A stretch of 64,000 nucleotides of DNA, taken from Lytechinus pictus. Lineage: Eukaryota. The DNA lies in contig NC_087245.1 of the NCBI RefSeq assembly GCF_037042905.1, positions 13,952,001 to 14,016,000 on the forward strand. The letters run 5' to 3'. The notes beneath the pieces are model-generated. The model did no database searches, was not told where the DNA came from, and was given only the letters and a program-made list of their open reading frames with translations. Both the position numbers and the translations under genes were made by a program. Below, one piece after another: positions 4,580 through 32,200 of this stretch; the first letter of the stretch is position 1, and every line of letters begins with the position of its first letter.

Positions 4580-4870
4580 ATAGAATTTCCGCAATCACGA
4601 CGCGGTCACTCTCTACAAGCATGACAAGGCACCAATTCCTTTGAAAATGTAAATCAAATCACAATGGAGATCTGAGAGGCATTTGTCAAAAGTTGGTGGA
4701 CCGGGAAAGCAGATGATCCGAATATTTGGACAGGACGAACAATTGCAAATATGTTGGTCTACCAACTTTCGACAAAAGCCTCTCAGCTCTCCATTGTGAT
4801 TTGATTTGTATTTTGAAAGGAATGGGTGCGTTGTAGAGAGCGGGTGCGTCGTGAATGTGAAAACCCTATA
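4580..4870. repeat. Long inverted repeat (foldback MITE)
   Basis: aatcaaatcacaatggagatctgagagg / cctctcagctctccattgtgatttgatt. Confidence 0.7.
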
Positions 4871-5054
4871 GTGAAATCCTGGAACTCTGGTCTCTGAACC
4901 ATGCGTTGCTCGTTCTGCTTGACTGAATCGCTATTGCACTCGAACTTGATGATTTTCATGATATGGTGTTATTTCAACCATGGACCTACTAGCATAACGT
5001 GGAGGGCTTTGGTTTTTCCAGTGGTTCCGAGAAACAGTCTATAGATGTTAGTAA

Positions 5055-5343
5055 CCCACATGTTAATCCACACTTTGCCACTCTCCACCCAGGTGTTAAA
5101 TGGGTACCCGGTAGGATGTGAAAGCCTATATGTAGTATGCCTAGCAATTGAGTCTTGGAACTCTTGTTGGAATGCTCCCCAGGGAGTGGAGAAGGTGCAT
5201 TGTATGCGGGCATGCAAGGATCCGATGACCGGCATGACCGGGGTAATAATGATATGTCTGTAAAACGCTTAGAGACGTCGTTCCGATGTATTAAGCGCTA
5301 TATAAATGCGCTATATAAATGCGGAATATTATTACTATTATTA
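5055..5343 (+). mobile_element. SINE core and tail fragment
   Basis: ctccacccaggtgttaaatgggtacc core; tail aagcgctatataaatgc...attatta. Confidence 0.6.
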
Positions 5344-5742
5344 TGTGGTACACTGTAAAAATGCTGTATAAAATTTTAAGCAAGTTGTTTAAGCCCATCA
5401 CTCTAACAACTATTGTTTAAACTTTTTAAACAAGATTTTTGAACCTTTTTTGTAATTGTTTAAACTTTTTAAACAACTTGTTTAAAGAGTTTAGCTAATG
5501 GGTGTTATAATTCTACTCCATTAAGTTAAGCCTTTCGATTTAAAGGGGGGGGGGGTCACTTTTACAACGCACGTACGATATAAAGCTCCATCATGCGTCG
5601 CTGTATGCCTAAACATTTCAAACTCATTTTTATTAACTTAAGGCAAGCTAACGTATTCAGAATATTGGTGACGTGGCAAATCTCATTGTGTAAAATCCTG
5701 ACGTCATAAAGCAGTTGTCAAGTTGTATTCCACACGTTTCCT

Positions 5743-18236: not shown

Positions 18237-21200
18237 ATATTGCGTATCGGGCAGAATTTATCTTTAAAAAAAAGTTGCGAGCGAGCAAAAATTTTGACCT
18301 TTTTAATACAAAAATCAAATTTTGGGATAGATTTTGACTTGATATCCAGAGAATAATATATTTCACTCTTCTCTCTTTAGATTCCTTTTTTGTTGTCCCT
18401 CTTTGCGGCAGTAGCGTGAAGAGTAACAAAAAACCAGGGGCGCAGTATATCACATGCTAAAAAGCTGCTTTTTATAGGTCCCGAGCGAGCGAGAAAAAGA
18501 AATCACCTTTTCATGAGAATCTAACTTTGAGCTATTTTTTACATTATATTCAGTCAATAAAATCATATCCTACACTTTTTCTTTCCCTTTCTTTCCTCCT
18601 TTTTTTGTTCTTGTTTGTAGAACTTTTTGGGGCCATGGCCCAAGCCTTCCATACGCAGTGCTGTGCGGTTGGGGTCCGGGGCGGAGCCCCTGGAACTTCT
18701 TGATATCAAAACCATTTAAACCTCGCAGATTGCCTCTATTTTAATCAAATCGTGGGCATAATATACAGAATATAGACTTTTTGCACAACACATTTACCAG
18801 TTGCGTAATGAATCAAATATTTTTGAGGGGGCAATATGGGAAAAATTTGTAAAAAGTCGCCAGCGTGCAAAGCGAGCTGGAAAAAATTGCCTTTTGAAAT
18901 TAAATTCTAATTATGTGATAGATTTTTCCATTATATTCAGCAAATAACACATTTCATTGTTTCAATTCATTTCATTGTACGTTGTCTCCTATAATTTCTT
19001 TTATTTCCTCTTGGGTGTGGAACCAAGACCCCCCCCCCCCCGCGCCTGTATGCCAGTGATTGAACGGGGGCGTTATACAGCCATTTGAAGGTCATAAAAG
19101 AAGAGCCCCTATACTGGCAAAGAACCGGTAGCTTTTTTGCATAACATTTAGCAAGCTTATAGCACAATGTATGCAGTCCATCTTTCTTCCCGCTCTTTAA
19201 TTTCAATCATCGGCAGCCCGGTCGTGTTATTTTTTTTTTCTTGTCCCTTTTCTTTGTTTTCCAATTTAGCTTTTGACTAATTACATTCTACCTTCGATTC
19301 CCGCTATTGTTTGTCATTTTGTCATCTTTCAATTTATTTCCCACCGTGCTATTGCATTACATAGGTCTTTTTCGGAATGATTTGTTCTTTCTCAAAATAA
19401 TGTTCTTCTTTCGTACATTTTCCCGCTTTCCTTCCATTTCCAATTTTAAAGAATGTTTTTTCTTCGTTTTATTTTCCTTTCCTTTTCCCCTTTCCTTCCC
19501 CTTTCCCTTTCTTTCTCCCTTCTTTTTTTCTCCTTTTCCCGTTTTCTCTTATTTTTCCGGTGAAATCCGCCAGGCAACCGCGTAGCCAGGATTTCATTTT
19601 GGAGGGGGCGGTAAATGCACGCGAAGCGTGCCAACACTTACAGAGCGCGCGAAGCGTGCTCCCTAGGGGGTGGGTGCAGGGAGGGGAAGTTTCCCCCTCC
19701 CGCGCGAAGCGCAAAGCTTTTGGTGTTTCATAAATTAAAATGAAAAGGAGCCGTCTCTCTTGTCTCTAGTACCTATATATCAGCTCCAATTCAGTTGACT
19801 ATATTGAGATTTTGAACCTTGTTTTCAAAAAAGATTGTGAAGGCACAAAAAAGGAATACAATGGAGGAAATTAAAATGATAATAACCCCGCGCGAAACGC
19901 GGAAGCTAAAGCGTTTTATCAATTTTTTGCCATGAAAAGGGTCCCGAGAAAAGGGTATTCACAAACATATATTGAATACTTCCCTTGGAAAGATCAGATT
20001 TGATTACAAACAATTTAGCGACAGTGCATATCTTTAACTCGCAAAACAATCTCCAATACTCCATCGGCTCTAATTCAATTAATTTTTAAGATTATTGAAC
20101 TTCATTACAAGGAAAATAGTGCGCAAAAAGTTGAAACTTCTGTGATTTATTGAAATTATATAAAAAGGATACCTAATTTCTTTGACTTATCCTGAAGCGC
20201 TTCATTTTGAATTATAAAGAAAATTTAGTGTCATTCAAAATTTCAAACTGAGGGCGCAAAACAGGACAGGAAATGAATGTGCAGGGAAATGACATGAAGT
20301 TTAATAGAATTTGATAAAAAATATTGTACTTTTTTATTTAATACGATACGAATTTTTTGCCTTCCTCTTTTTAAATTAGGAACCTGTTTGCCCCAAAAAT
20401 TATGGTTGTTTAGTAATGAACTGAAAAGCGGGAGAATTTGACTTTATGGAGGTGACGGCAGAAATTGATATAAAGATTTCACCCGCCCAGAGCCGACCCG
20501 ACCAGAAGTTGCGCGATCAATTAAAAAAAAGATAACTTCATATACTTCGGCCTAACCTTACTCTAATTCCATGCCCTAATGTATACATTTGAACTTTAAC
20601 TGGCAAGAAACACATATAGCTGAGGTGGAAAAACAGGGTTAGAGAAAGGGTGGGGGAAACAATGGAGATCTTCAATATTGTCATTTAACCGCGCGCAGCG
20701 CGGAAGCAAAATTCATATATAAATTTAGAGCAAGAGTGAAGGAGTTTCTCTTTTGAGAAATAAAAAAAAGAATAAAAAGAAAAAAAAACACAAAGTTACC
20801 CTTCTTCCCTTTCCTCCTTTCCCTTTTCCTTTTCTCCTCTCTTTTTTCCCTTCTTTTTTTTTCTTTTTGGGGACGTTTTTTTTATGGGGGGGCGACCGCC
20901 CCCACCGCCCCCCCCCCCTGGCTACGCGCCTGGGGCAGCTTGCCCCCCTGCCCCCGCCTGTTACGCCACTGCATACATTTGTTTGTCATACATTTCTTTG
21001 GTCAAGGTTTTCTTTTATATTCCCGGCTACTTAGGTCCCGTTATAGGCGAGTACAAACAATACGCCGTACTGCCCCCCCCCCCCCCCTCCAAGATAGTGC
21101 CTGCGTCCATCTTCATAGACCTATGAGGGGACGGTCTATTATCGCGTGGCGTCTGCTGACCTCGAACCGGCGCGCCGCAGTAATAAGTCTAATATCCTAC

Positions 21201-22878: not shown

Positions 22879-24925
22879 AAAGTACTCTGTAAATGTCCGT
22901 TTTATGATGTGAATATTAACATTTTCATGCTTGCTCTGTACGCTCGCATTATTTGATTTGCCAAGTAGGCCTACCTATAGTCTTTGTGTATTTCATAAGA
23001 TTCTCAAAATATCCCTTTTCAGGTGGGATTGTCAAAAGCAAAGGCCTATCAGCTAGCGCTGCGCGCTCGCATTTTGATTGGTGACGTATGCATACCTCTA
23101 TATTAATTCTATAACAAACTACTTAAAATCCTCCAGTTTATGACAGTGTATCAAAAAAATCGGCTCGCGATTTGCGCTCGCATTAATTGTTAAAATTTTA
23201 TCAACTCATGAATCCTATTCATGAATACAAAAGTGCGTAAAAACATTCAGTTTTCATGCCTCAACGTTAACAAATTTCACACACCCATTAGGCTTATTAG
23301 ATTAATAAATATGATAAGGGGGATATATAAAAGGGGAATATCGACAAGTTTCATATCGCGCTTAGGAAGAGGAATAGGAAGATAGTCATCATTTTCATAT
23401 GATGACAAAATGTCCTTAGGCCTAGAATGTCCCGGTCCGAGATCAAAATGATAATAAAAATATCAGCTCGCGCTTCGCGTTCGTATCATTTACTAAGTGC
23501 TATCCACAACCACTTCATAATTTCCCTACACAGTGCCTTTAATAGTGCTTAAATTGACCCTTTTCATACCGGAATATCAAATATTTTCAGCTCGCGCTCG
23601 CACTACCGATTTTTATATAAAGCTAAGAAATTACTGTTATAGGACATGGGCGTTTTGCCCCCCCCCCCCATTTTCAACGACCAAGAAAAAAAGAGAAACG
23701 GAAGGGATAAGGGTGAAATATTTTATTTTCTAAACATGCTAAATGTTATGTCAAAATCTATCACAGGTTGTATTTTTATAATAAATTTGTCAATTTTTTT
23801 TCTCGCTCGCTCGCAAAATCTTGTAAATTTTACGCGATACGCCAATCGAGCCCCCTCAAAATTTTGGGCTCATTACGCCAGTGAGTGGGACAACCCCTTC
23901 AAAGAAACCAAAAAAAAAAATCAACTTTGAGTGGCCGGTCGGGGAAAACATGGGTGAAAAAAAAATGCCACCCCCCTATTGGCGGAAGCTGGATACGCCC
24001 CTGGATAACATGGACCTTTTAATATCTTATATTAAATATTTTACAGTCAATATGCACAAATCATTTTTCTCGCGAATGGAGTTTTCATTAGCAGAGTTGT
24101 CATTCGAGACAAAGCCATGCGAACCAATTTCAACTGGAAGAAAAACAATTTTGACATTTTTCCTGTCGATGTCTGCGATCATGGTGCATATTCGTTACTT
24201 TTGTAGTCGTGTGCTTTGTCAATATTCGTTTCAAACGGGACAGACAATTTGAAGAATAACATTTGGTTTCGTTGCTTAGAGACAATACTCAGATCGGAGT
24301 TAGCACAAACCTACCTAATTCCCAAATAGGTCAGTTTGTGTGATCTCAACATGAATAGTTGATCTGCCATGTGAACCACCAGGAATGTCAGAGTAAATAT
24401 GACAATAAATGTCAACGTCCTCATTACCATGATTACCATTATCTTTATCAGTTCTGCTTTGACACAACTTACTGAGCGAATATAATTCAGCAAATTACGC
24501 CAGATGTCAGTCAAGTGAAATCTGACAATGATTTAAAACATGATGAATAAAGAGTTTCATGATTGCTATACATTTAGATCAAAATGGTGGAGCACTTGTT
24601 GAACGGTTGCCCCTCTGAAAGCTCTCTGTGAATAGCTGATTTTTATGTGAATTTTTGAACACTTCAAGCTTTTTTGACTGCACTAAGTGTTTGAACAATA
24701 TGTATGGATTGTGTGGGACAAGTTTTGAGTGTTTTGTAGCTTAAATCAGACAGGATTTGTGCTTGTGAAAATGTTGGATCTACTGCTGCAAAAACTGTAC
24801 AAGAACCATTTTGATCTCACTGCATTCAACTGGTACCTGGGAAGTGCTTTAGTCATGAATAGGAAAAGACCTATACATCTATTGTTAGTGATCTTTTCAG
24901 TGACTTGAAAGCCTTGATCTTAACA

Positions 24926-25090
24926 ATGGCTCTACAGAGGACCTACCTATTTTTGCTCCTAACCATTCTAGTATGTCTGTCCTATCATGAATGGAATGAA
25001 TGGGATCATTCTACTTGCACTGGAACTGTGTATTCTGGCTGCAGTAAACGTACACAAGTTTCATTATTGAAGGGAAAATCAAACATTTGA
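24926..25090 (+). CDS. LINE leader ORF with a signal-peptide-like N-terminus; continues in the -1 frame into 2A/APE
   Basis: acaATGG Kozak context; MALQRTYLFLLLTILVCLS hydrophobic core; overlaps the open -1 frame over 25048-25090. Confidence 0.55.
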   Translation: MALQRTYLFLLLTILVCLSYHEWNEWDHSTCTGTVYSGCSKRTQVSLLKGKSNI

Positions 25091-26667
25091 AATATCTTGG
25101 TGCACACATTCCATATTATAGCAACTCATCAGCAACTTTCCAGATATCTCTTACAATCTATGGAGATGTTGAGCCCAACCCGGGCCCTCAACTAATTACT
25201 AAAGATGGAAAGAAAACCCCTGCCTATGATTTAAAGTATCAGCAAAAGGTTGATCAAGAGCATTATGCCTATATTAAAAAGAGCTTTAATCACTTTGCAT
25301 TTTCAACCATTCCCACATCGCGCCTAAATCCTGATGTTTGGAGAAGGATCCATGAGCTTGGTATCTCACGAAAGCGGAAAACTCATCGTGGATCTAAAGG
25401 TCGTAAGAGAAGGGCTAGGAACTTAAACTTGAGACACAGTGTATTGTCAACGTCACAACATGATGTTTTTGATCACCCTATACCAGTTTTGGTTCAACAA
25501 AGAAAGTATACCCGACATTTTAAGATGAGAAATGGAGACATAAACAATCTTAAACAGATAACAGTACTGATTGACAAAAATCATCATTTTGACTTACCAC
25601 GCTTTTTTCTGTCAAATATACGATCGATCAATAATAAACTTGATGAAATTGACATTGCTGCTGATATAAACAAAGTTGATATTCTTGCTTTGACGGAAAC
25701 ATGGATTGATGAATCAACTTCTATGGATTGTTTGAGTTTACATGGTTATACTTTATTTTCAAAGCCAAGGAGTGGAAGAAAAGGAGGAGGAGTGGCTTTA
25801 TACGTTAAAGATATTTTTAATCCTAGTATTATTCCTGTTTTGGTACCTGATAATGTAGAGGCTTTGTGGGTCTATGTACGACCACGATTATTACCTCGTG
25901 AAATATCACGTATTGTCGTATGTGTATTGTACTTTCCACCACGTAGTCCATATGGGCAGGAATATATTGATCATATCATTTCTACGATTGATGATGTTCT
26001 TACAAAACATCCTGATGTTGGCATTTTTGTGATGGGTGACATGAATGACCTTGATATTGAACCAATTTTGAATAATGATAACTTTCATCAGGTTGTAAAT
26101 ATTCCAACAAGAGATAATAATATACTTGACAAAATTGTAATGAATTGTGATAAGTTTTATTTACCTGTTAGTGTCACATCACCTCTTGGAAAAAGTGACC
26201 ATAACTGTGTACTGCTTAGACCAATTGATAGTTTGGCACGCTCAAGAAAGAAAATAAAAATAAAACTTGCCCGCCCTCTACCAGACAGTGGTTTGCGTTT
26301 ATATGGTCAATGGATCACTCAATATTCTTGGGATGATATGTTACAGCTACAAGATCCTTCTGAAAAATATTCTCGTCTTATTCTAACTACTCTATCAAAG
26401 CTGGATGAATTATTACCAACTAAGAAAATTAAGATAAAGGATAATGACAAACCTTGGATGACACCACAGATAAAAGCAATCATAATTGAAAGAGAAAAAG
26501 CTTTCGAGAAGAATAACAAACCTCTGTGGCGTAGTCTCAGAAATAAAGTAAATAGAATGATAAAAAGTGCAAAGAAACATTATTACAACACACGTGTATC
26601 TCATCTTAAATCAACAAATCCAGCAGACTGGTATAAACAAATCAAGATTATTACAAAAAAAGAATAA
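25087..26667 (+). CDS. LINE polyprotein part 1: 2A-like peptide, basic linker, AP endonuclease
   Basis: GDVEPNPGP; APE motifs SNIRSI, ALTETW, RKGGGVALYV, MGDMN, PTRDNNILD, GKSDH. The true start is probably upstream at 24926. Confidence 0.88.
   Translation: MKYLGAHIPYYSNSSATFQISLTIYGDVEPNPGPQLITKDGKKTPAYDLKYQQKVDQEHYAYIKKSFNHFAFSTIPTSRLNPDVWRRIHELGISRKRKTHRGSKGRKRRARNLNLRHSVLSTSQHDVFDHPIPVLVQQRKYTRHFKMRNGDINNLKQITVLIDKNHHFDLPRFFLSNIRSINNKLDEIDIAADINKVDILALTETWIDESTSMDCLSLHGYTLFSKPRSGRKGGGVALYVKDIFNPSIIPVLVPDNVEALWVYVRPRLLPREISRIVVCVLYFPPRSPYGQEYIDHIISTIDDVLTKHPDVGIFVMGDMNDLDIEPILNNDNFHQVVNIPTRDNNILDKIVMNCDKFYLPVSVTSPLGKSDHNCVLLRPIDSLARSRKKIKIKLARPLPDSGLRLYGQWITQYSWDDMLQLQDPSEKYSRLILTTLSKLDELLPTKKIKIKDNDKPWMTPQIKAIIIEREKAFEKNNKPLWRSLRNKVNRMIKSAKKHYYNTRVSHLKSTNPADWYKQIKIITKKE
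25165..25188 (+). other. 2A/StopGo ribosomal skipping motif D-V-E-P-N-P-G|P
   Basis: Exact match to the D(V/I)ExNPG-P consensus, preceded by ATFQISLTIYG. Confidence 0.85.
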
Positions 26668-28264
26668 CACATCTAACGTTATTGCTGTACCTGGTGTTGA
26701 ACCTAATGATAAAGATCGTCAAGAGAAGACTGCTGATACCATTAATAAGCATTTCATTAATATAGCATCAGATTTGGCGCCGTTGGATAGAAGTTGCTTA
26801 CCAGCTTTCTTACCTTCTCCTTGTGTTTGCCCAGAAGTACAACCTTATCAGGTGTATTCTATGCTAAAGAAAATAAAATGCAGTAAAGCAGGTGTAACAG
26901 ATGACTTACCCCCTCGTGTAATTCGTGAATTTGCATGTGAACTAAGCCATCCTCTTGCCAATATCCTTAATACATCATTTCAACAAGGGTTAGTACCTTG
27001 GCAGTGGAAGAGAAGTCAGGTTGTTCCCATTCCCAAGTCACAACCACCTAATATTAAAAAACTCCGACCTATATCTCTTACATGTCAATTCGCTAAAATT
27101 GCAGAATCATTCATTACAAAATGGTTATTGGAAGATATTTCTAAATATATTGACATTCATCAATACGGAAACAGACAAGGTCTGTCAACTACCCATTATT
27201 TGATAAAATTATTGCATTGTGTATTGGACAACTGTGAAAAATCTAAATCATTATCAACCATAGTTTGCACAGACTATTCCAAAGCCTTCGATAGACTTGA
27301 CCATAGTATTCTGATTCGAAAATTAATTGAATTTAACGTAAGACCTTGCATAATTCAGTGGATTGTTAGTTTTTTAGAAAATCGTTCACAATCTGTTAAA
27401 TATCAGGGCGTGTTGTCTCCGTATATTACAAATCATGCTGGAGTGCCGCAAGGAACGAAATTAGGCCCGATATTGTTTTTGATCATGTTTAATGATTCGT
27501 GTCAGAATGATTCTTTACCGCACTTTAAATATGTTGATGATCTTACTATAGTTGAGAATCGTTCAGTAGAAACTCCTTCTGTATTACAATGTCATCTAAA
27601 TGCACTCGTTACCTGGTCATCTAATAATCACATGAAACTAAATCCGAATAAATGCAATGTAATCAGAGTTACTTTCTCTAAAAATCCACCATTACCTAAT
27701 CTATTGCATATTGGTGACACTTCTCTGCAATATTCAGAAACTGTTAAAATACTTGGTGTTTATATTCAGTCAAACTTAAAATGGGATAAACAAATTTCAG
27801 ATATTATAAAAAGGTGTAACAGAAAATTGTATATGTTCAGACTTGTCAAACAATATAAACTCCCTATGTCAGACCTTGTTCAAATTTACATTGGATATAT
27901 TCGTCCAATTTTGGAGTATTGTGTACCGGTTTTCAATGGAGCACTAACTGCTAAACAGGTTAAGGACTTAGAAAAAATACAAAAAAGAGTTTGCAAAATA
28001 ATTCTTGGCTCAGATTTTATAGATTATGAAAATGCATTAACAAAATGTGGATTAGAATGTCTTGAAAGAAGACGAAAAAGACTGTGTTTGGAGTTTGCTA
28101 AATCTCTTATAAAAAACCCTTACTGTAATAACTGGCTACCAAAAAGGAAAAATGTCTCAATCTCATTAAGGAGTGTTCCAAACTTTGCTCAGTTAAAATG
28201 CAAAACAGCTCGCTTAAGAAAAAGTGCAATACCATATTTCATTGATTTACTAAATTCGAAATAA
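26655..28264 (+). CDS. LINE polyprotein part 2: reverse transcriptase (joined to part 1 across an A7 frameshift)
   Basis: RT motifs LRPISLT, DYSKAFD, GVPQGTKLGP, YVDD, KILGV, YIRPILEY. Removing one A at 26655-26661 fuses it with part 1. Confidence 0.92.
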
Positions 28265-29258
28265 ATTTTTACTTTCATACCCTTGAAATCAACTCAAATT
28301 TTGGCCATTGTTTTAGTCTCCATTTCAATCCAATTGATATTTGAATTTATAATTGTCTAATATTCATCACTTTTTAATATTGTATTTCTTTTTTTTTCGT
28401 TCTATTTTATTATTTTTAATGATTTTTTATGTACACTTGCTCTTTAAAATTTATTTATTATCTATGTACATTGTAAATTGTAATTGTTTGCTTTTATCCA
28501 TGCTTTGTGAACGTTTTATTGTAAACATGTTAATTTCAGCCTTCTGGCTTTGTAACATGTATTGTTTTTATACGAAATAAACCATGATTGAATTGAATTG
28601 AATTGAATTGAAATTTGTCATCTGATCTTTCCCCCATCTTTTCAGGTTGACATTTGTATGAGTGTCAAAGAAGCATTGAATAAGAATTTTGCAACCCGTT
28701 CTGGTAGATTATAAGCAAAACACTTTAGTTTCCCTCCAAAACAGTAAGTTTGAGTAAGTTTCCCTGAAATGCTATAGGTTTTTGACGTAAAGATGCTAAA
28801 ACTCAGAGACACGGTTTTCGCATTCGTTGTTGGCCTGCTTCTTCTGCGTGGCAGGAGTAGCATTTGCATCGCAAACATCAATCCAAACTGTTTCGTTTGT
28901 GCATGTAATTGATACGCATTTACTTTCACCGAGGATCTCCTTGCTTTCACATCTCCGAGTGATCGCATGCTCACATGGGCAAGGGTATGGCATTTTACAT
29001 GTAAGTCAGAAATGCAAGGAATATCAAGCCCTTCTGGCGTGTGTATAATAGCGAAGATTGTGGGATGGGCAAGGTTTATTTACACTTGGTCCAAACACCA
29101 AATATATTTCCTCGCATGCACTTCGAGATATTTTTTTTTTTTATGTAGTGACATATATGCTTCTTTTTCATGACTATATACTTAAAGTGATTGCCCCCTT
29201 TAAAGGTCTGAATATAAATCATTTCCAGTCCGTGCCTACGTTGGCATTAGTGGATTGT

Positions 29259-32200
29259 CCCTTACAGAAAATTTCCAATGGTATACCATTGAGCTACCAT
29301 TGATGTTAGATGGATTACCATTCAACCATCACAAACCACGACACCGTTGAAGCACCAAAAAAACACCATTGAAATACCATTGAAACACCATTGGAACTAA
29401 TTTAATTTTTTTAGACGCTCATTTGCATATCCAATGGTAGCCCAATGGTAGTCCAATGGTAGTCCAATGGTGATCCAATGGTAGGGCACCATTGAGTAAC
29501 CTAATTTGCATACCAGTGGTGGCTGAATGGTGTTTCATTGGTCTACCATACATCCACCACTGATTTACCATTCACAATCCACCATTGACATACCATACAT
29601 GTACCATTTATCTACCATTCATCCACCATTGAACTACCACAAATCCACCATTGATCTACCATTCACTTTTCACCATTGACCTACCATACATCCACCATTG
29701 ACCTACCATTCACAATCCACCATTGACCTACCACACATCCACCATTGATCTACCATTCACTATTCACCATTGACCTACCATACATCCACAATTGACCTAC
29801 CATTCACTATCCACCATTGACCTACCATCCATACATCCACCACTGATCTACCATTCATTATCCACCATTGACCTACCATACATCCACCATTGACCTACCA
29901 TTTACTATCCACCATTGACCTACCATACATTCACCACTGATCTACCATTCATTATCCACCATTGACCTACCATACATCCACCATTGACCTACCATTCAAT
30001 ATCCACCATTGACCTACCATACATCCACCACTGATCTACCATTCATTATCCACCATTGACCTACCATACATCCACCATTGACCTACCATTCAATATCCAC
30101 CATTGACCTACCATACATCCACCACTGATCTACCATTCATTATCCACCATTGATCTACCACACATCCACCATTGATCTACCATTCAATATCCACCATTGA
30201 CCTACCATACATCCACCACTGATCTACCATTCATTATCCACCATTGATCTACCACACATCCACCATTGATCTACCATTCAATATCCACCATTGACCTACC
30301 ATACATTCACCACTGATCTACCATTCATTATCCACCATTGACCTACCATACATCCACCATTGACCTACCATTCAATATCCACCATTGACCTACCATACAT
30401 CCACCACTGATCTACCATTCATTATCCACCATTGACCTACCATACATCCACCATTGACCTACCATTCAATATCCACCATTGACCTACCATACATCCACCA
30501 CTGATCTACCATTCATTATCCACCATTGATCTACCACACATCCACCATTGATCTACCATTCAATATCCACCATTGACCTACCATACATCCACCACTGATC
30601 TACCATTCATTATCCACCATTGATCTACCACACATCCACCATTGATCTACCATTCAATATCCACCATTGACCTACCATACATCCACCATTGATCTACCAT
30701 TCACTATCCACCATTGACCTACCATACATCCACCATAGACCTACCATTCACTATCCACCATTTACCTACCACACATCCACCATTGACATACCATTCACTA
30801 TCCACCATTGACCTACCATACATCCACCAATGACCTACCATTCACTATACACTAGTGACCTACCATACATCCACCACTGATCTACCATTCACTATACACT
30901 ATTGACCTACCATACATCCACCACTGATCCACCATACATCCACCAATGGTGGATAGCGAATGGTACTTATCGTTTAGTGTCTGTCTTCAGCTTACTGTAT
31001 CCAATATCATAACAATCACTGTCCATCATTGACTCACCAAACATCCACCATTGACCTACCATTCACTATACCCCATTGTCCACATGTTGCTACAATAAAC
31101 AGGTTAATTGGAAAATATTAATAAATTTGATATCAAAAGATGTGTAAGACTCTAATCTATTGAGTCAAGAAATCTTGTGGCGCAAAAAAAAATCATCCTC
31201 GAAGATATTGCAGCGAACGTACAGGGAGGAATTCCACACTCCAGCCTTTTTAGGGTGAACCTGTTACAAATTGAAAACCTATTATTACTGCTTTTAAGCA
31301 AGGAGCTTAGGAACCTAATACTATTACTACAACTATACTTCTACTAGCACATCATTTATGAACATGAAAAAACATAATATACATGTACCTGAAAAAAAGT
31401 AGTTCAACAGCTATAAATCTATCTGACCTCATGAGGACCAAGAATTGTACTTACTTGTTAAGATAAGTAGGAGTCTTACTAATGACAAAAGATTACTTTC
31501 TCACATAATCCAAACAAAACTTACAGAGATTGTTCGAAAATGATAAATGGAAAACAACTTAGGAATGATTAATATTGAGCTGGTCATCCCAACACATCTG
31601 TATTTCTGCATAATTACACAAGGTCTATGATTAAAAAAAGATTTATGGTTTTTTTTTCAGTTAATGCGGCATTTTCAGCTATTTTTTTTCTTCTTCTAAT
31701 GGTTTGTTTTTAGTTTGGTGGGCTACACAACTTAATGCATGATAAAATAACAGGAATCACTATTAAGGCTGATTCCCACATTTACCTCCTCCAAAAATGT
31801 CTTCTCGGTTAAAAAGTTTGTAAATTAATCCCATATTACACATTTCATAATTAGTATCTAAAGTATAATATGACTATGATTTAGACATGTATGTATTGCG
31901 CATCTCAATGGCATTGAAAAAAGTATATGGTAGCACAGAGCAATCTAGCTCTTTTAAGCTCTATAAGAGCTCTTGTAAGGTCTGAAAGAGCTCTGGTACA
32001 TAAACGATGAAACACAAAAGAGTCACTGCATAAGTGAATAGAATTGTCATTTTTACGATGGCAATCAACAACAAAAAAGGAGTATTTTTTTACACTGCTC
32101 GATGGTGCAGTTTACCGCACCATATGGGATGACGACGCAAACTTCTTAACTGAAGAGGCAGTTTTTTAGGTTAACATGGGGATCGGCCTTTAGCTGGAAA

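Follow-up and report, generated by a model that had tools for sequence, protein, structure and literature searches.

A Signal-like N-terminus Upstream of the 2A Sequence in Non-LTR Retrotransposons of Lytechinus pictus

The element in the window and its leader

The stretch of DNA analyzed here, referred to as the window, comprises 64,000 nucleotides of the Lytechinus pictus genome (assembly GCF_037042905.1, contig NC_087245.1, positions 13,952,001 to 14,016,000 of the forward strand). It harbors a decayed copy, 4.0 kb in length, of a non-long terminal repeat (non-LTR) retrotransposon with a single open reading frame (ORF) that encodes an apurinic-type endonuclease (APE) followed by a reverse transcriptase (RT). 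The ORF of this element starts with a leader peptide that ends in a 2A (StopGo) sequence, and the leader itself begins with a segment resembling a secretory signal peptide. A start of this kind recurs in all 23 leader types identified in the same genome. The coordinates of the features are collected in Table 1.

The leader opens with an ATG in a strong context, acaATGG (window sequence 24920-24931, ttaacaATGGCT). This ATG starts the peptide MALQRTYLFLLLTILVCLS, and its full frame reads MALQRTYLFLLLTILVCLSYHEWNEWDHSTCTGTVYSGCSKRTQVSLLKGKSNI before it is closed by a stop codon. The sequence GDVEPNPGP ends at 25188, one base out of the leader frame, and belongs to a frame that opens at 25048 and runs for 539 aa into the endonuclease domain. 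The 2A pattern, when back-translated, has a single match in the 64-kb window (25165-25187) and no match in 100 shuffles.

Judged from the alignment, the one-base offset is a lesion of the window copy. The window reads GGG-AAAATC where the copies on contigs C14, C3, and C17 read GGGAAAAATC, four A residues against five, and both the pairwise differences and one further contig (X1) agree with this. In the C14 copy (L006 4802-5062; open frame 4739-5734), the ATG, the 2A sequence, and the start of the endonuclease share a reading frame; the stretch up to NPG is exactly 87 aa long, and GDVEPNPGP ends at residue 88. An earlier sequence-only reading of the window had the strong-context ATG, its coordinates, the leader peptide, and the one-base offset right. 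It had also joined the leader to the 2A sequence by a −1 shift, giving a product of about 87 aa in one ORF with the 2A and the APE-RT, and the C14 copy provides precisely this product as a natural in-frame sequence.

In the window family, the maximum of the Kyte-Doolittle 11-residue hydropathy (KD11) is 3.25, and candidate small-residue (−3,−1) sites are found after residues 13, 17, and 19. AlphaFold2, applied to the C14 leader together with the alignment of the 23 types, predicts a helix for residues 2-27, with a predicted local distance difference test (pLDDT) value of 93 over the first 20 residues. Past the helix, no confident structure is obtained (block means of 49-64, predicted template modeling score of 0.29). 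Pfam assigns no family to the 54-aa window leader, and the best score returned for the leader by the ESM Atlas, 0.82, is below a meaningful level.

The window element is a dead copy of a low-copy, single-ORF APE-RT non-LTR family and, as such, ordinary debris; each of the four copies (window, C14, C3, and C17) is broken somewhere. By blastn, the C14 copy (L006 4461-8474) is 98.9% identical to the window copy over 4027 columns. The two differ in 44 columns, with indels at 25074 (one base fewer in the window), 25748 (two more bases in C14), and 26655 (one more base in the window). The C3 copy is 5′-truncated, 95.1% identical, and alignable from 25059, and the C17 copy is 94-95% identical, begins at 25008, and carries an internal deletion. 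When positions 24800-25400 were searched at the DNA level against the animal's own genome (811.7 Mb, 368 contigs), five places were retrieved: the window itself, C14 (99%, full length), C3 (97%, from query base 260), C17 (94%, query bases 209-340), and a 76% relative from another family.

A third open piece (26564-28264) carries the RT domain of the window copy. The marks of target-primed reverse transcription are present, namely, the 5′ truncation of the C3 and C17 copies and a 3′ tail made of TTGAA simple repeats. An APE followed by an RT in one ORF, the absence of an ORF1, and an N-terminal 2A motif are all found, as in the class of elements described in the available text of Odon 2013 (PMC3708506).

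The surroundings of the C3 copy also have a counterpart in the window. Positions 20049-20879 are 93-95% identical, in inverted orientation, to the DNA flanking the C3 copy on both sides (L007 1240-1838 and 5385-5619). Because the segment matches both flanks, the insertion site of the C3 copy lay in a different repeat family, one that is also represented in the window.

Table 1. Positions of the element and its parts in the window, with the basis of each assignment
Feature	Position	Strand	Basis
Whole non-LTR retrotransposon copy, decayed, single APE + RT ORF	24585..28607	+	blastn against the C14 copy; Pfam
5′ untranslated leader, 341 nt, several upstream ATGs	24585..24925	+	homology with C14 begins at 24585
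Initiation codon, context acaATGg	24926..24928	+	direct reading
Signal-peptide-like N-terminus: n-region MALQR and uncharged hydrophobic core TYLFLLLTILVCLSY	24926..24985	+	computed on the C14 copy (V16L relative to the window)
Stretch skipped GT..AG in RNA reads	24971..25346	+	4 reads, 2 starts, run X19 only
Cys/Trp-bearing spacer in the leader frame, premature stop at 25088-25090	24986..25090	+	reading frame
A-run, four A in the window and five in three other copies; separates the leader frame from the 2A frame	25075..25078	+	alignment
Extended 2A/StopGo block KYLGAHIPYYSNSSATFQISLTIYGDVEPNPGP, predicted skipped bond between 25185 and 25186	25090..25188	+	sequence pattern
Exo_endo_phos (PF03372), apurinic-type endonuclease	25615..26058	+	Pfam E 1.3e-10, residues 190-337 of the piece opening at 25048
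Overlap of two open ORF pieces, second frame break	26564..26667	+	one extra base in the window at 26655 relative to C14
RVT_1 (PF00078), reverse transcriptase	27029..27763	+	Pfam E 7.9e-30, residues 156-400 of the piece opening at 26564
3′ tail of TTGAA pentanucleotide repeats, after the 3′ untranslated region	28588..28612	+	ORF stop at 28262-28264; homology to other copies ends at 28607-28609

Leader types, their conservation, and their transcription

A search of the genome with the 88-aa natural leader yields 150 scored matches from 261 candidates, with E values down to 1e-16 in other families. About 51 of the 150, counted by hand, lie in open frames of at least 1050 aa, and NPGP preceded by an open frame is held by 24 of the 25 loci L014-L038. 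Thirty-one further stretches were fetched, comprising 26 new places and five longer versions of earlier ones. In 27 of these, a Met-initiated hydrophobic leader of 73-96 aa is followed by an uninterrupted ORF of 1019-1204 aa. The other four are truncated inside the leader, and full members of their families have a hydrophobic leader. Since these 5′-truncated copies end within it, the leader belongs to the retrotransposed RNA.

Clustering at 80% identity sorts the 50 Met-initiated leaders, which come from 45 distinct places, into 26 groups. Of these, three (L017, L031, and L036) were dropped as truncated or rearranged, their first Met being internal, and 23 leader types were kept. Identity above 50% over at least 300 aa of the ORF is reached by only three pairs of types, with a maximum of 55.7%. 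At this level of divergence, the hydrophobic start is kept without conservation of sequence. The N-terminal parts of the aligned types have no conserved residue but the Met, and KD11 reaches at least 2.0 within the first 35 aa in 23/23 types (median of 2.85, minimum of 2.06). The n-region is 0-8 aa long in 22 types, while L062 has 18 aa counted from its first Met, its second Met aligning with those of the others. An uncharged hydrophobic core of 8-17 aa is found in all 23. By a simple rule, a small-residue (−3,−1) site is present in 21 types, although the test is weak because such sites are common by chance. The start codon lies in the context ACAATGG in 15 of the 23 types, with a purine at −3 in 22 (A in each case, as read by eye from the printed contexts) and G at +4 in 18.

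The hydrophobic start exceeds chance. A KD11 of at least 2.0 is attained by 12 of 90 Met-started ORFs of at least 60 aa in the six frames of the window, by 18 of the 489 windows of 35 aa taken from the post-2A proteins of the 23 elements (none of which reaches 2.85), and by none of the 23 post-2A N-termini. Composition-preserving shuffles match the observed value in 479 of 11500 cases. The background frequency of such a segment is 3.7-13%.

Relatives are also present in public databases. A profile of the 23 leaders, compared with 1.84 billion representative proteins, matches 992 representatives at E ≤0.001 and 121 at ≤1e-10. Among the best 150 of the 992, NPGP is found in 144, and a Met start combined with an NPGP ending at 60-100 is found in 113. 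Of these 113 Met-initiated leaders, 102 have a hydrophobic start, so that the conservation of the ATG and core, which the sequence-only reading had made a test of its proposal, extends from the 23/23 types of this genome to most public leaders. The named members among 20 matches looked up belong to L. pictus, L. variegatus, Strongylocentrotus purpuratus, the brittle star Amphiura filiformis, and the sea star Patiria miniata. One public L. pictus protein differs from family L062 in one of 81 leader residues. A single-leader search for longer homologous proteins returned nothing at E ≤1, and a homologue search with the 23-type alignment returned 12 proteins with no new named taxa.

The conserved part of the leader is a block of about 30 aa with the pattern [KR]-[YF]-x-G-x-x-[IV]-x-Y-Y-x-N-x-x-x-[TS]-F-Q...G-D-[VI]-x-x-N-P-G-P. 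In the 23-row alignment, Y65, N67, G80, D81, N85, P86, G87, and P88 are invariant, and Y64, F72, and Q73 are conserved in at least 90% of the rows. Measured from where the core ends to the Gly of NPG, the spacing is 52-81 aa across the 23 own types and 51-82 aa in the 102 public leaders, the latter pre-filtered to leaders of 60-100 aa, with a median of 60 in both sets. The whole leader is 70-95 aa long, and its core is separate from NPG, unlike in peptides in which signal and 2A coincide.

Between the core and the block lies a spacer of 23-52 aa in the own types and 22-53 aa in the public leaders. It contains 5.2% (own) and 5.1% (public) Cys, as opposed to 2.1% in the downstream proteins. The number of Cys residues after the core is even in 15 of 23 own types and 54 of 102 public leaders, such that the parity is random. 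A folded, secreted cargo peptide was considered as the principal explanation and rejected, as the spacer varies in sequence and length, its Cys parity is random, and no confident fold is predicted. The suggestion of the sequence-only reading that a specific cargo peptide takes the place of ORF1 is not supported, for the same reasons. N-glycosylation is likewise not supported as the explanation of the invariant Asn, since N-x-S/T occurs there in just 15 of the 23 own types and in 56 of the 95 public leaders. Taken together, the spacing, spacer, Cys, and sequon data point to a length requirement rather than to a conserved folded or glycosylated peptide.

Selection on the leader was estimated within families as the ratio of nonsynonymous to synonymous differences (pN/pS), with Nei-Gojobori counts pooled over the most divergent pair in each of 12 families. 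Between-family dN/dS was dropped, as representatives at most 55.7% identical would be saturated at synonymous sites. The pN/pS of the whole leader is 0.34 (20 N, 17 S; Fisher p 0.001; 12 pairs), a value not near 1, albeit on small counts, which answers the dN/dS check attached to the sequence-only reading. The signal and spacer together give 0.41 (18 N, 12 S; p 0.02), the 2A block 0.12 (2 N, 5 S), and the downstream protein 0.67. One pair, L033/L034, is partly misaligned by a frameshift. Without it, the ratios are 0.31 for the leader, 0.41 for signal and spacer, 0 for the 2A block, and 0.64 downstream. By these comparisons, and on small counts, the leader is constrained at least as much as the enzyme.

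No ORF1 precedes the leader ATG, as the 341 nt upstream of it contain only ORFs of up to 59 aa, measured from stop to stop. In other families, the 5′ untranslated region (5′UTR) is 287-374 nt long with 2-11 upstream ATGs in nine of the 13 family pairs compared.

Transcription was assessed with raw RNA reads of three 2026 runs bearing the same species label, about 6% of each run being read. Positions 24300-28800 are covered by 6, 8, and 2 reads in the three runs, with the first mate nearly always on the minus strand, an arrangement that denotes sense RNA in usual stranded libraries. The signal amounts to faint transcription of either the window copy or its C14 twin. The stretch skipped in some reads has a donor GT that is private to the window copy (position 24971 is G in the window and T in C14), and the reading frame joined across it stops two codons past the junction. 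The event has the appearance of cryptic splicing at a site that arose by substitution in a dead copy.

Some members of the element group are far better preserved. The loci L057/L058 (C3, C8) and L043/L044 (C1, C6) have copies on different contigs that are identical or almost identical, with 0.1-0.5% coding divergence and 100% identity over the compared 5′ region, with intact ORFs of 1137-1176 aa. Such near-identical, intact copies on different contigs indicate that the group was mobile very recently in this genome. Just downstream of the window element, at about 29400-31120, overlapping open frames on both strands encode reiterated peptides (e.g., ...STIHPPLIYHS...STIDLPYIHH...), and this reiteration points to a tandem repeat array in the region.

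A proposed role for the leader

The evidence leans, although not heavily, toward a leader with a real endoplasmic reticulum (ER)-signal function, which would be exposed before StopGo and then released, leaving the enzyme in the cytosol. In this proposal, an intact ORF would start with a three-part leader. The first part would be the signal-like N-terminus, consisting of 0-8 aa that usually include one basic residue, 8-17 uncharged hydrophobic residues, and a polar segment bearing small amino acids at −3 and −1. The second would be a variable, Cys-enriched, unstructured spacer of about 30 aa, and the third a block of about 30 aa ending in G-D-[VI]-x-x-N-P-G, with the break predicted before the P that follows.

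With the ribosome at NPG, the hydrophobic core would be located 51-82 residues from the peptidyl-transferase center. The ribosome exit tunnel holds about 30-40 aa. As a distance of at least 51 aa exceeds the tunnel, the core would be exposed before StopGo, unlike that of the 26-aa peptides of sea-urchin NOD-like receptors (NLRs). The signal recognition particle (SRP) would bind the exposed core, and the StopGo pause would assist docking of the ribosome-mRNA complex to the ER. Another possible route is posttranslational import of the free leader as a small presecretory peptide, given its length of under 100 aa. StopGo would shed the leader of 70-95 aa, and the ribosome would continue from the proline to make the endonuclease-RT as a signal-less cytosolic protein. 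Unskipped chains would keep the signal and be diverted into the ER. The leader would then determine where the enzyme is synthesized as well as how much of it is usable. Any particular benefit, be it the place of synthesis, dose control, or quality control, is proposed with less confidence than the ER-signal function itself. The window copy is incapable of this mechanism because of the one-base loss in its leader and the second frame break between the APE and the RT.

Several observations weigh against an ER-signal function. The chief difficulty is the canonical Glu of D[VI]ExNPGP, which is present in only two of the 23 own types and 18 of the 113 public leaders. At this position (window 25171-25173), the other own types have S (6), N (5), H (4), D (2), Q (2), K (1), or C (1), and the echinoderm lineage may thereby hold a natural series of 2A variants with graded efficiency. 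In the available text of Odon 2013 (PMC3708506), several Glu substitutions gave low or very low activity in rabbit lysate. Poor skipping combined with a true signal would send most of the enzyme into the ER, an outcome difficult to square with retrotransposition.

Other difficulties concern the assignment of the signal. The n/h/c test applied here is a heuristic and not a dedicated signal-peptide predictor. Two of the 23 types are without a simple (−3,−1) site, and the net charge of the n-region is only +1 (11 types) or 0 (10 types), with −1 or −2 in the remaining two. The search profile includes the N-terminal columns and was combined with a 60-100 aa filter, such that neither the 102 of 113 hydrophobic starts nor the length range of the public leaders is fully independent. 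The pN/pS values come from few differences, with 8 N and 6 S (p 0.10) in the signal part taken by itself. Lastly, ribosomes would have to reach the leader ATG past 2-11 upstream ATGs, possibly through a downstream transcription start, leaky scanning, or internal entry.

The hydrophobic N-terminus could instead act as a membrane-binding or self-associating helix on the released peptide, which would stay on the cytosolic side and perform an ORF1-like job, either tethering the ribonucleoprotein to membrane or lipid or chaperoning. Such a role would suit elements without ORF1, for which Odon 2013 proposes, in its available text, a separate product N-terminal of the 2A. The leader would be released as a discrete peptide of 70-95 aa in molar excess over the enzyme, and the helix predicted by AlphaFold2 for residues 2-27 is confident. 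However, an 8-17 aa core with a strict N-terminal place, a basic residue before it, and polar or acidic residues after it fits a signal peptide better than an anchor. The leader also has little with which to carry RNA binding, as the peptide outside the 2A block is unconserved and has no predicted fold. A cytosolic helix of this kind is, on balance, unlikely.

About equally improbable is a role of the hydrophobic segment in recoding or dosage, whereby SRP elongation arrest or pulling on the nascent chain tunes StopGo success or enzyme yield, and the location of the product is not under selection. Two published points are in line with it, as far as the available texts go: Luke 2013 argues for a downregulation of ORF2 by the 2A where ORF1 is missing, and de Felipe 2010 (PMC2978324) reports that translocation can change 2A efficiency. 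The minimum spacing of 51-52 aa between core and NPG would put the core just outside the ribosome at the pause, and the varied residue at the Glu position fits a tunable efficiency. Nonetheless, tuning of this type still needs recognition by SRP or the translocon, which makes it a variant of the ER-signal function rather than an alternative to it.

A functionless peptide, whose hydrophobic start follows from a signal in the nucleotide sequence (such as a T-rich internal promoter or an RNA structure) or is a neutral relic, is already disfavored and very improbable: internal promoters are frequent in the 5′ regions of long interspersed nuclear elements (LINEs), and the 5′UTRs rich in upstream ATGs hint at unusual initiation, yet 23/23 types keep the physicochemical pattern, the ATG, and its context with no alignable sequence between families, the pN/pS of signal and spacer is 0.41 (p 0.02), and the background frequency of such a segment is only 3.7-13%.

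Returning to the ER-signal function, a broader and much more tentative proposal can be built upon it. An old, still active echinoderm lineage of LINE-like elements may have replaced ORF1 with a “dock-and-release” leader. An SRP-type signal placed before StopGo would take the mRNA-ribosome complex to the rough ER or nuclear envelope. There, after loss of the leader, synthesis of the enzyme would proceed on the cytosolic side beside its own RNA, and unskipped chains would be disposed of in the lumen. The 2A-like signals of sea-urchin NLRs could then have descended from such leaders through domestication and shortening.

The papers that describe single-ORF LINE-like elements leave it open what the 2A and the peptide preceding it do. 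The present leaders have a signal-like start separated from the skipping site by a fixed minimum distance, a layout kept in diverged families and in three echinoderm classes, and this layout makes ER targeting, dose control, and mRNA localization experimentally approachable. If true, the mechanism would be an unusual use of the secretory targeting machinery by a retrotransposon and a possible source of the published NLR signal/2A peptides. The leaders would also provide natural, compact “signal-spacer-2A” modules for co-expression work.

Comparison with known systems

In its proposed manner of working, the leader is reminiscent of XBP1u, in which a hydrophobic region and a C-terminal translational pause some 50 aa later bring the protein's own mRNA to the ER membrane. 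The likeness is one of working only. XBP1u is the product of a cellular gene, involves no peptide-bond skipping, and has no homology to the element leader.

Among retrotransposons, the available text of Odon 2013 (PMC3708506) describes 2A-like sequences 40-80 aa from the ORF2 N-terminus in about 50 mostly ORF1-less APE-type non-LTR elements. Among them are STR elements of S. purpuratus that fall in the Rex1, L2, and CR1 clades, and the 2As of STR-61_SP and STR-197_SP are active in vitro. The window element is like STR-61_SP, STR-89_SP, and STR-197_SP in having APE and RT in one ORF, no ORF1, an N-terminal 2A, and an echinoderm host. Its RT shares long motifs, compared by eye only, with those of STR-89_SP and STR-61_SP, which are labeled REX1 in the supplement of the same paper. 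By this visual comparison, the element appears to resemble the S. purpuratus STR/Rex1 elements. The part upstream of the 2A is treated in the available text of Odon 2013 only as functions N-terminal of the 2A that may be made as a separate product, and the signal-like N-terminus is an addition to this description. In the available passages of Odon 2013 and Luke 2013, no statement was found that the upstream peptide is hydrophobic, secreted, or a signal; Luke 2013 argues for downregulation of ORF2 by the 2A.

The trypanosome non-LTR elements L1Tc and Ingi, which have no ORF1, likewise carry a 2A close to the start of their APE-RT ORF (Heras 2006, as cited in Odon 2013 and Luke 2013). They differ from the present elements in clade and host, and the passages on them in the citing papers report no signal-like start. 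The order of parts proposed here corresponds to that of the artificial signal-protein-2A-protein constructs of de Felipe 2010 (PMC2978324). According to its available text, a signal-less protein located after a working 2A stays out of the ER, the unskipped fusion enters it, and translocation can alter the efficiency of the 2A. Those constructs are engineered with a full-size upstream protein, whereas the element leader is a natural, minimal peptide.

The sequence-only reading had taken the leader for the best candidate for an undescribed system, which was an overstatement. The N-terminal 2A was already published (Odon 2013, PMC3708506), as was dual targeting by a signal combined with a 2A (Roulston 2016, PMC4981915), both as far as the available texts go. 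The part of the claim that stands is narrower and concerns the separate signal-like N-terminus on a retrotransposon leader, which was not found in searchable papers. The available parts of Rao 2025, two 2026 preprints, a PNAS 2026 paper, and a 2024 review mention retrotransposon 2As and contain no signal-like leader. No description of such a leader on a 2A retrotransposon was found in the full-text literature searched, although theses, subscription journals, and figures may hold one. The layout upstream of the 2A, with its separate signal-like N-terminus, seems undescribed in the searchable literature.

The 26-aa 2A-like N-termini of S. purpuratus NLRs (SpNLRs) are described in the available text of Roulston 2016 (PMC4981915) as both a signal sequence and a recoding site, resulting in dual targeting. 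Non-LTR elements are named there merely as the other class of 2A carriers. Both systems combine an N-terminal signal, predicted in the case of the element leader, with StopGo in a sea urchin. In contrast to the SpNLR peptide, in which signal and 2A coincide within 26 aa and are still inside the ribosome at skipping, the element leader has its core and 2A separated by at least 51 aa within 70-95 aa, a comparison of lengths and layout. The proteins downstream are also different, being an APE and an RT in the element and DEATH-NACHT-LRR in the SpNLRs. In SpNLRs, the skipped product is cytosolic and the unskipped product is sent to the exocytic pathway, and the same split is proposed for the element leader.

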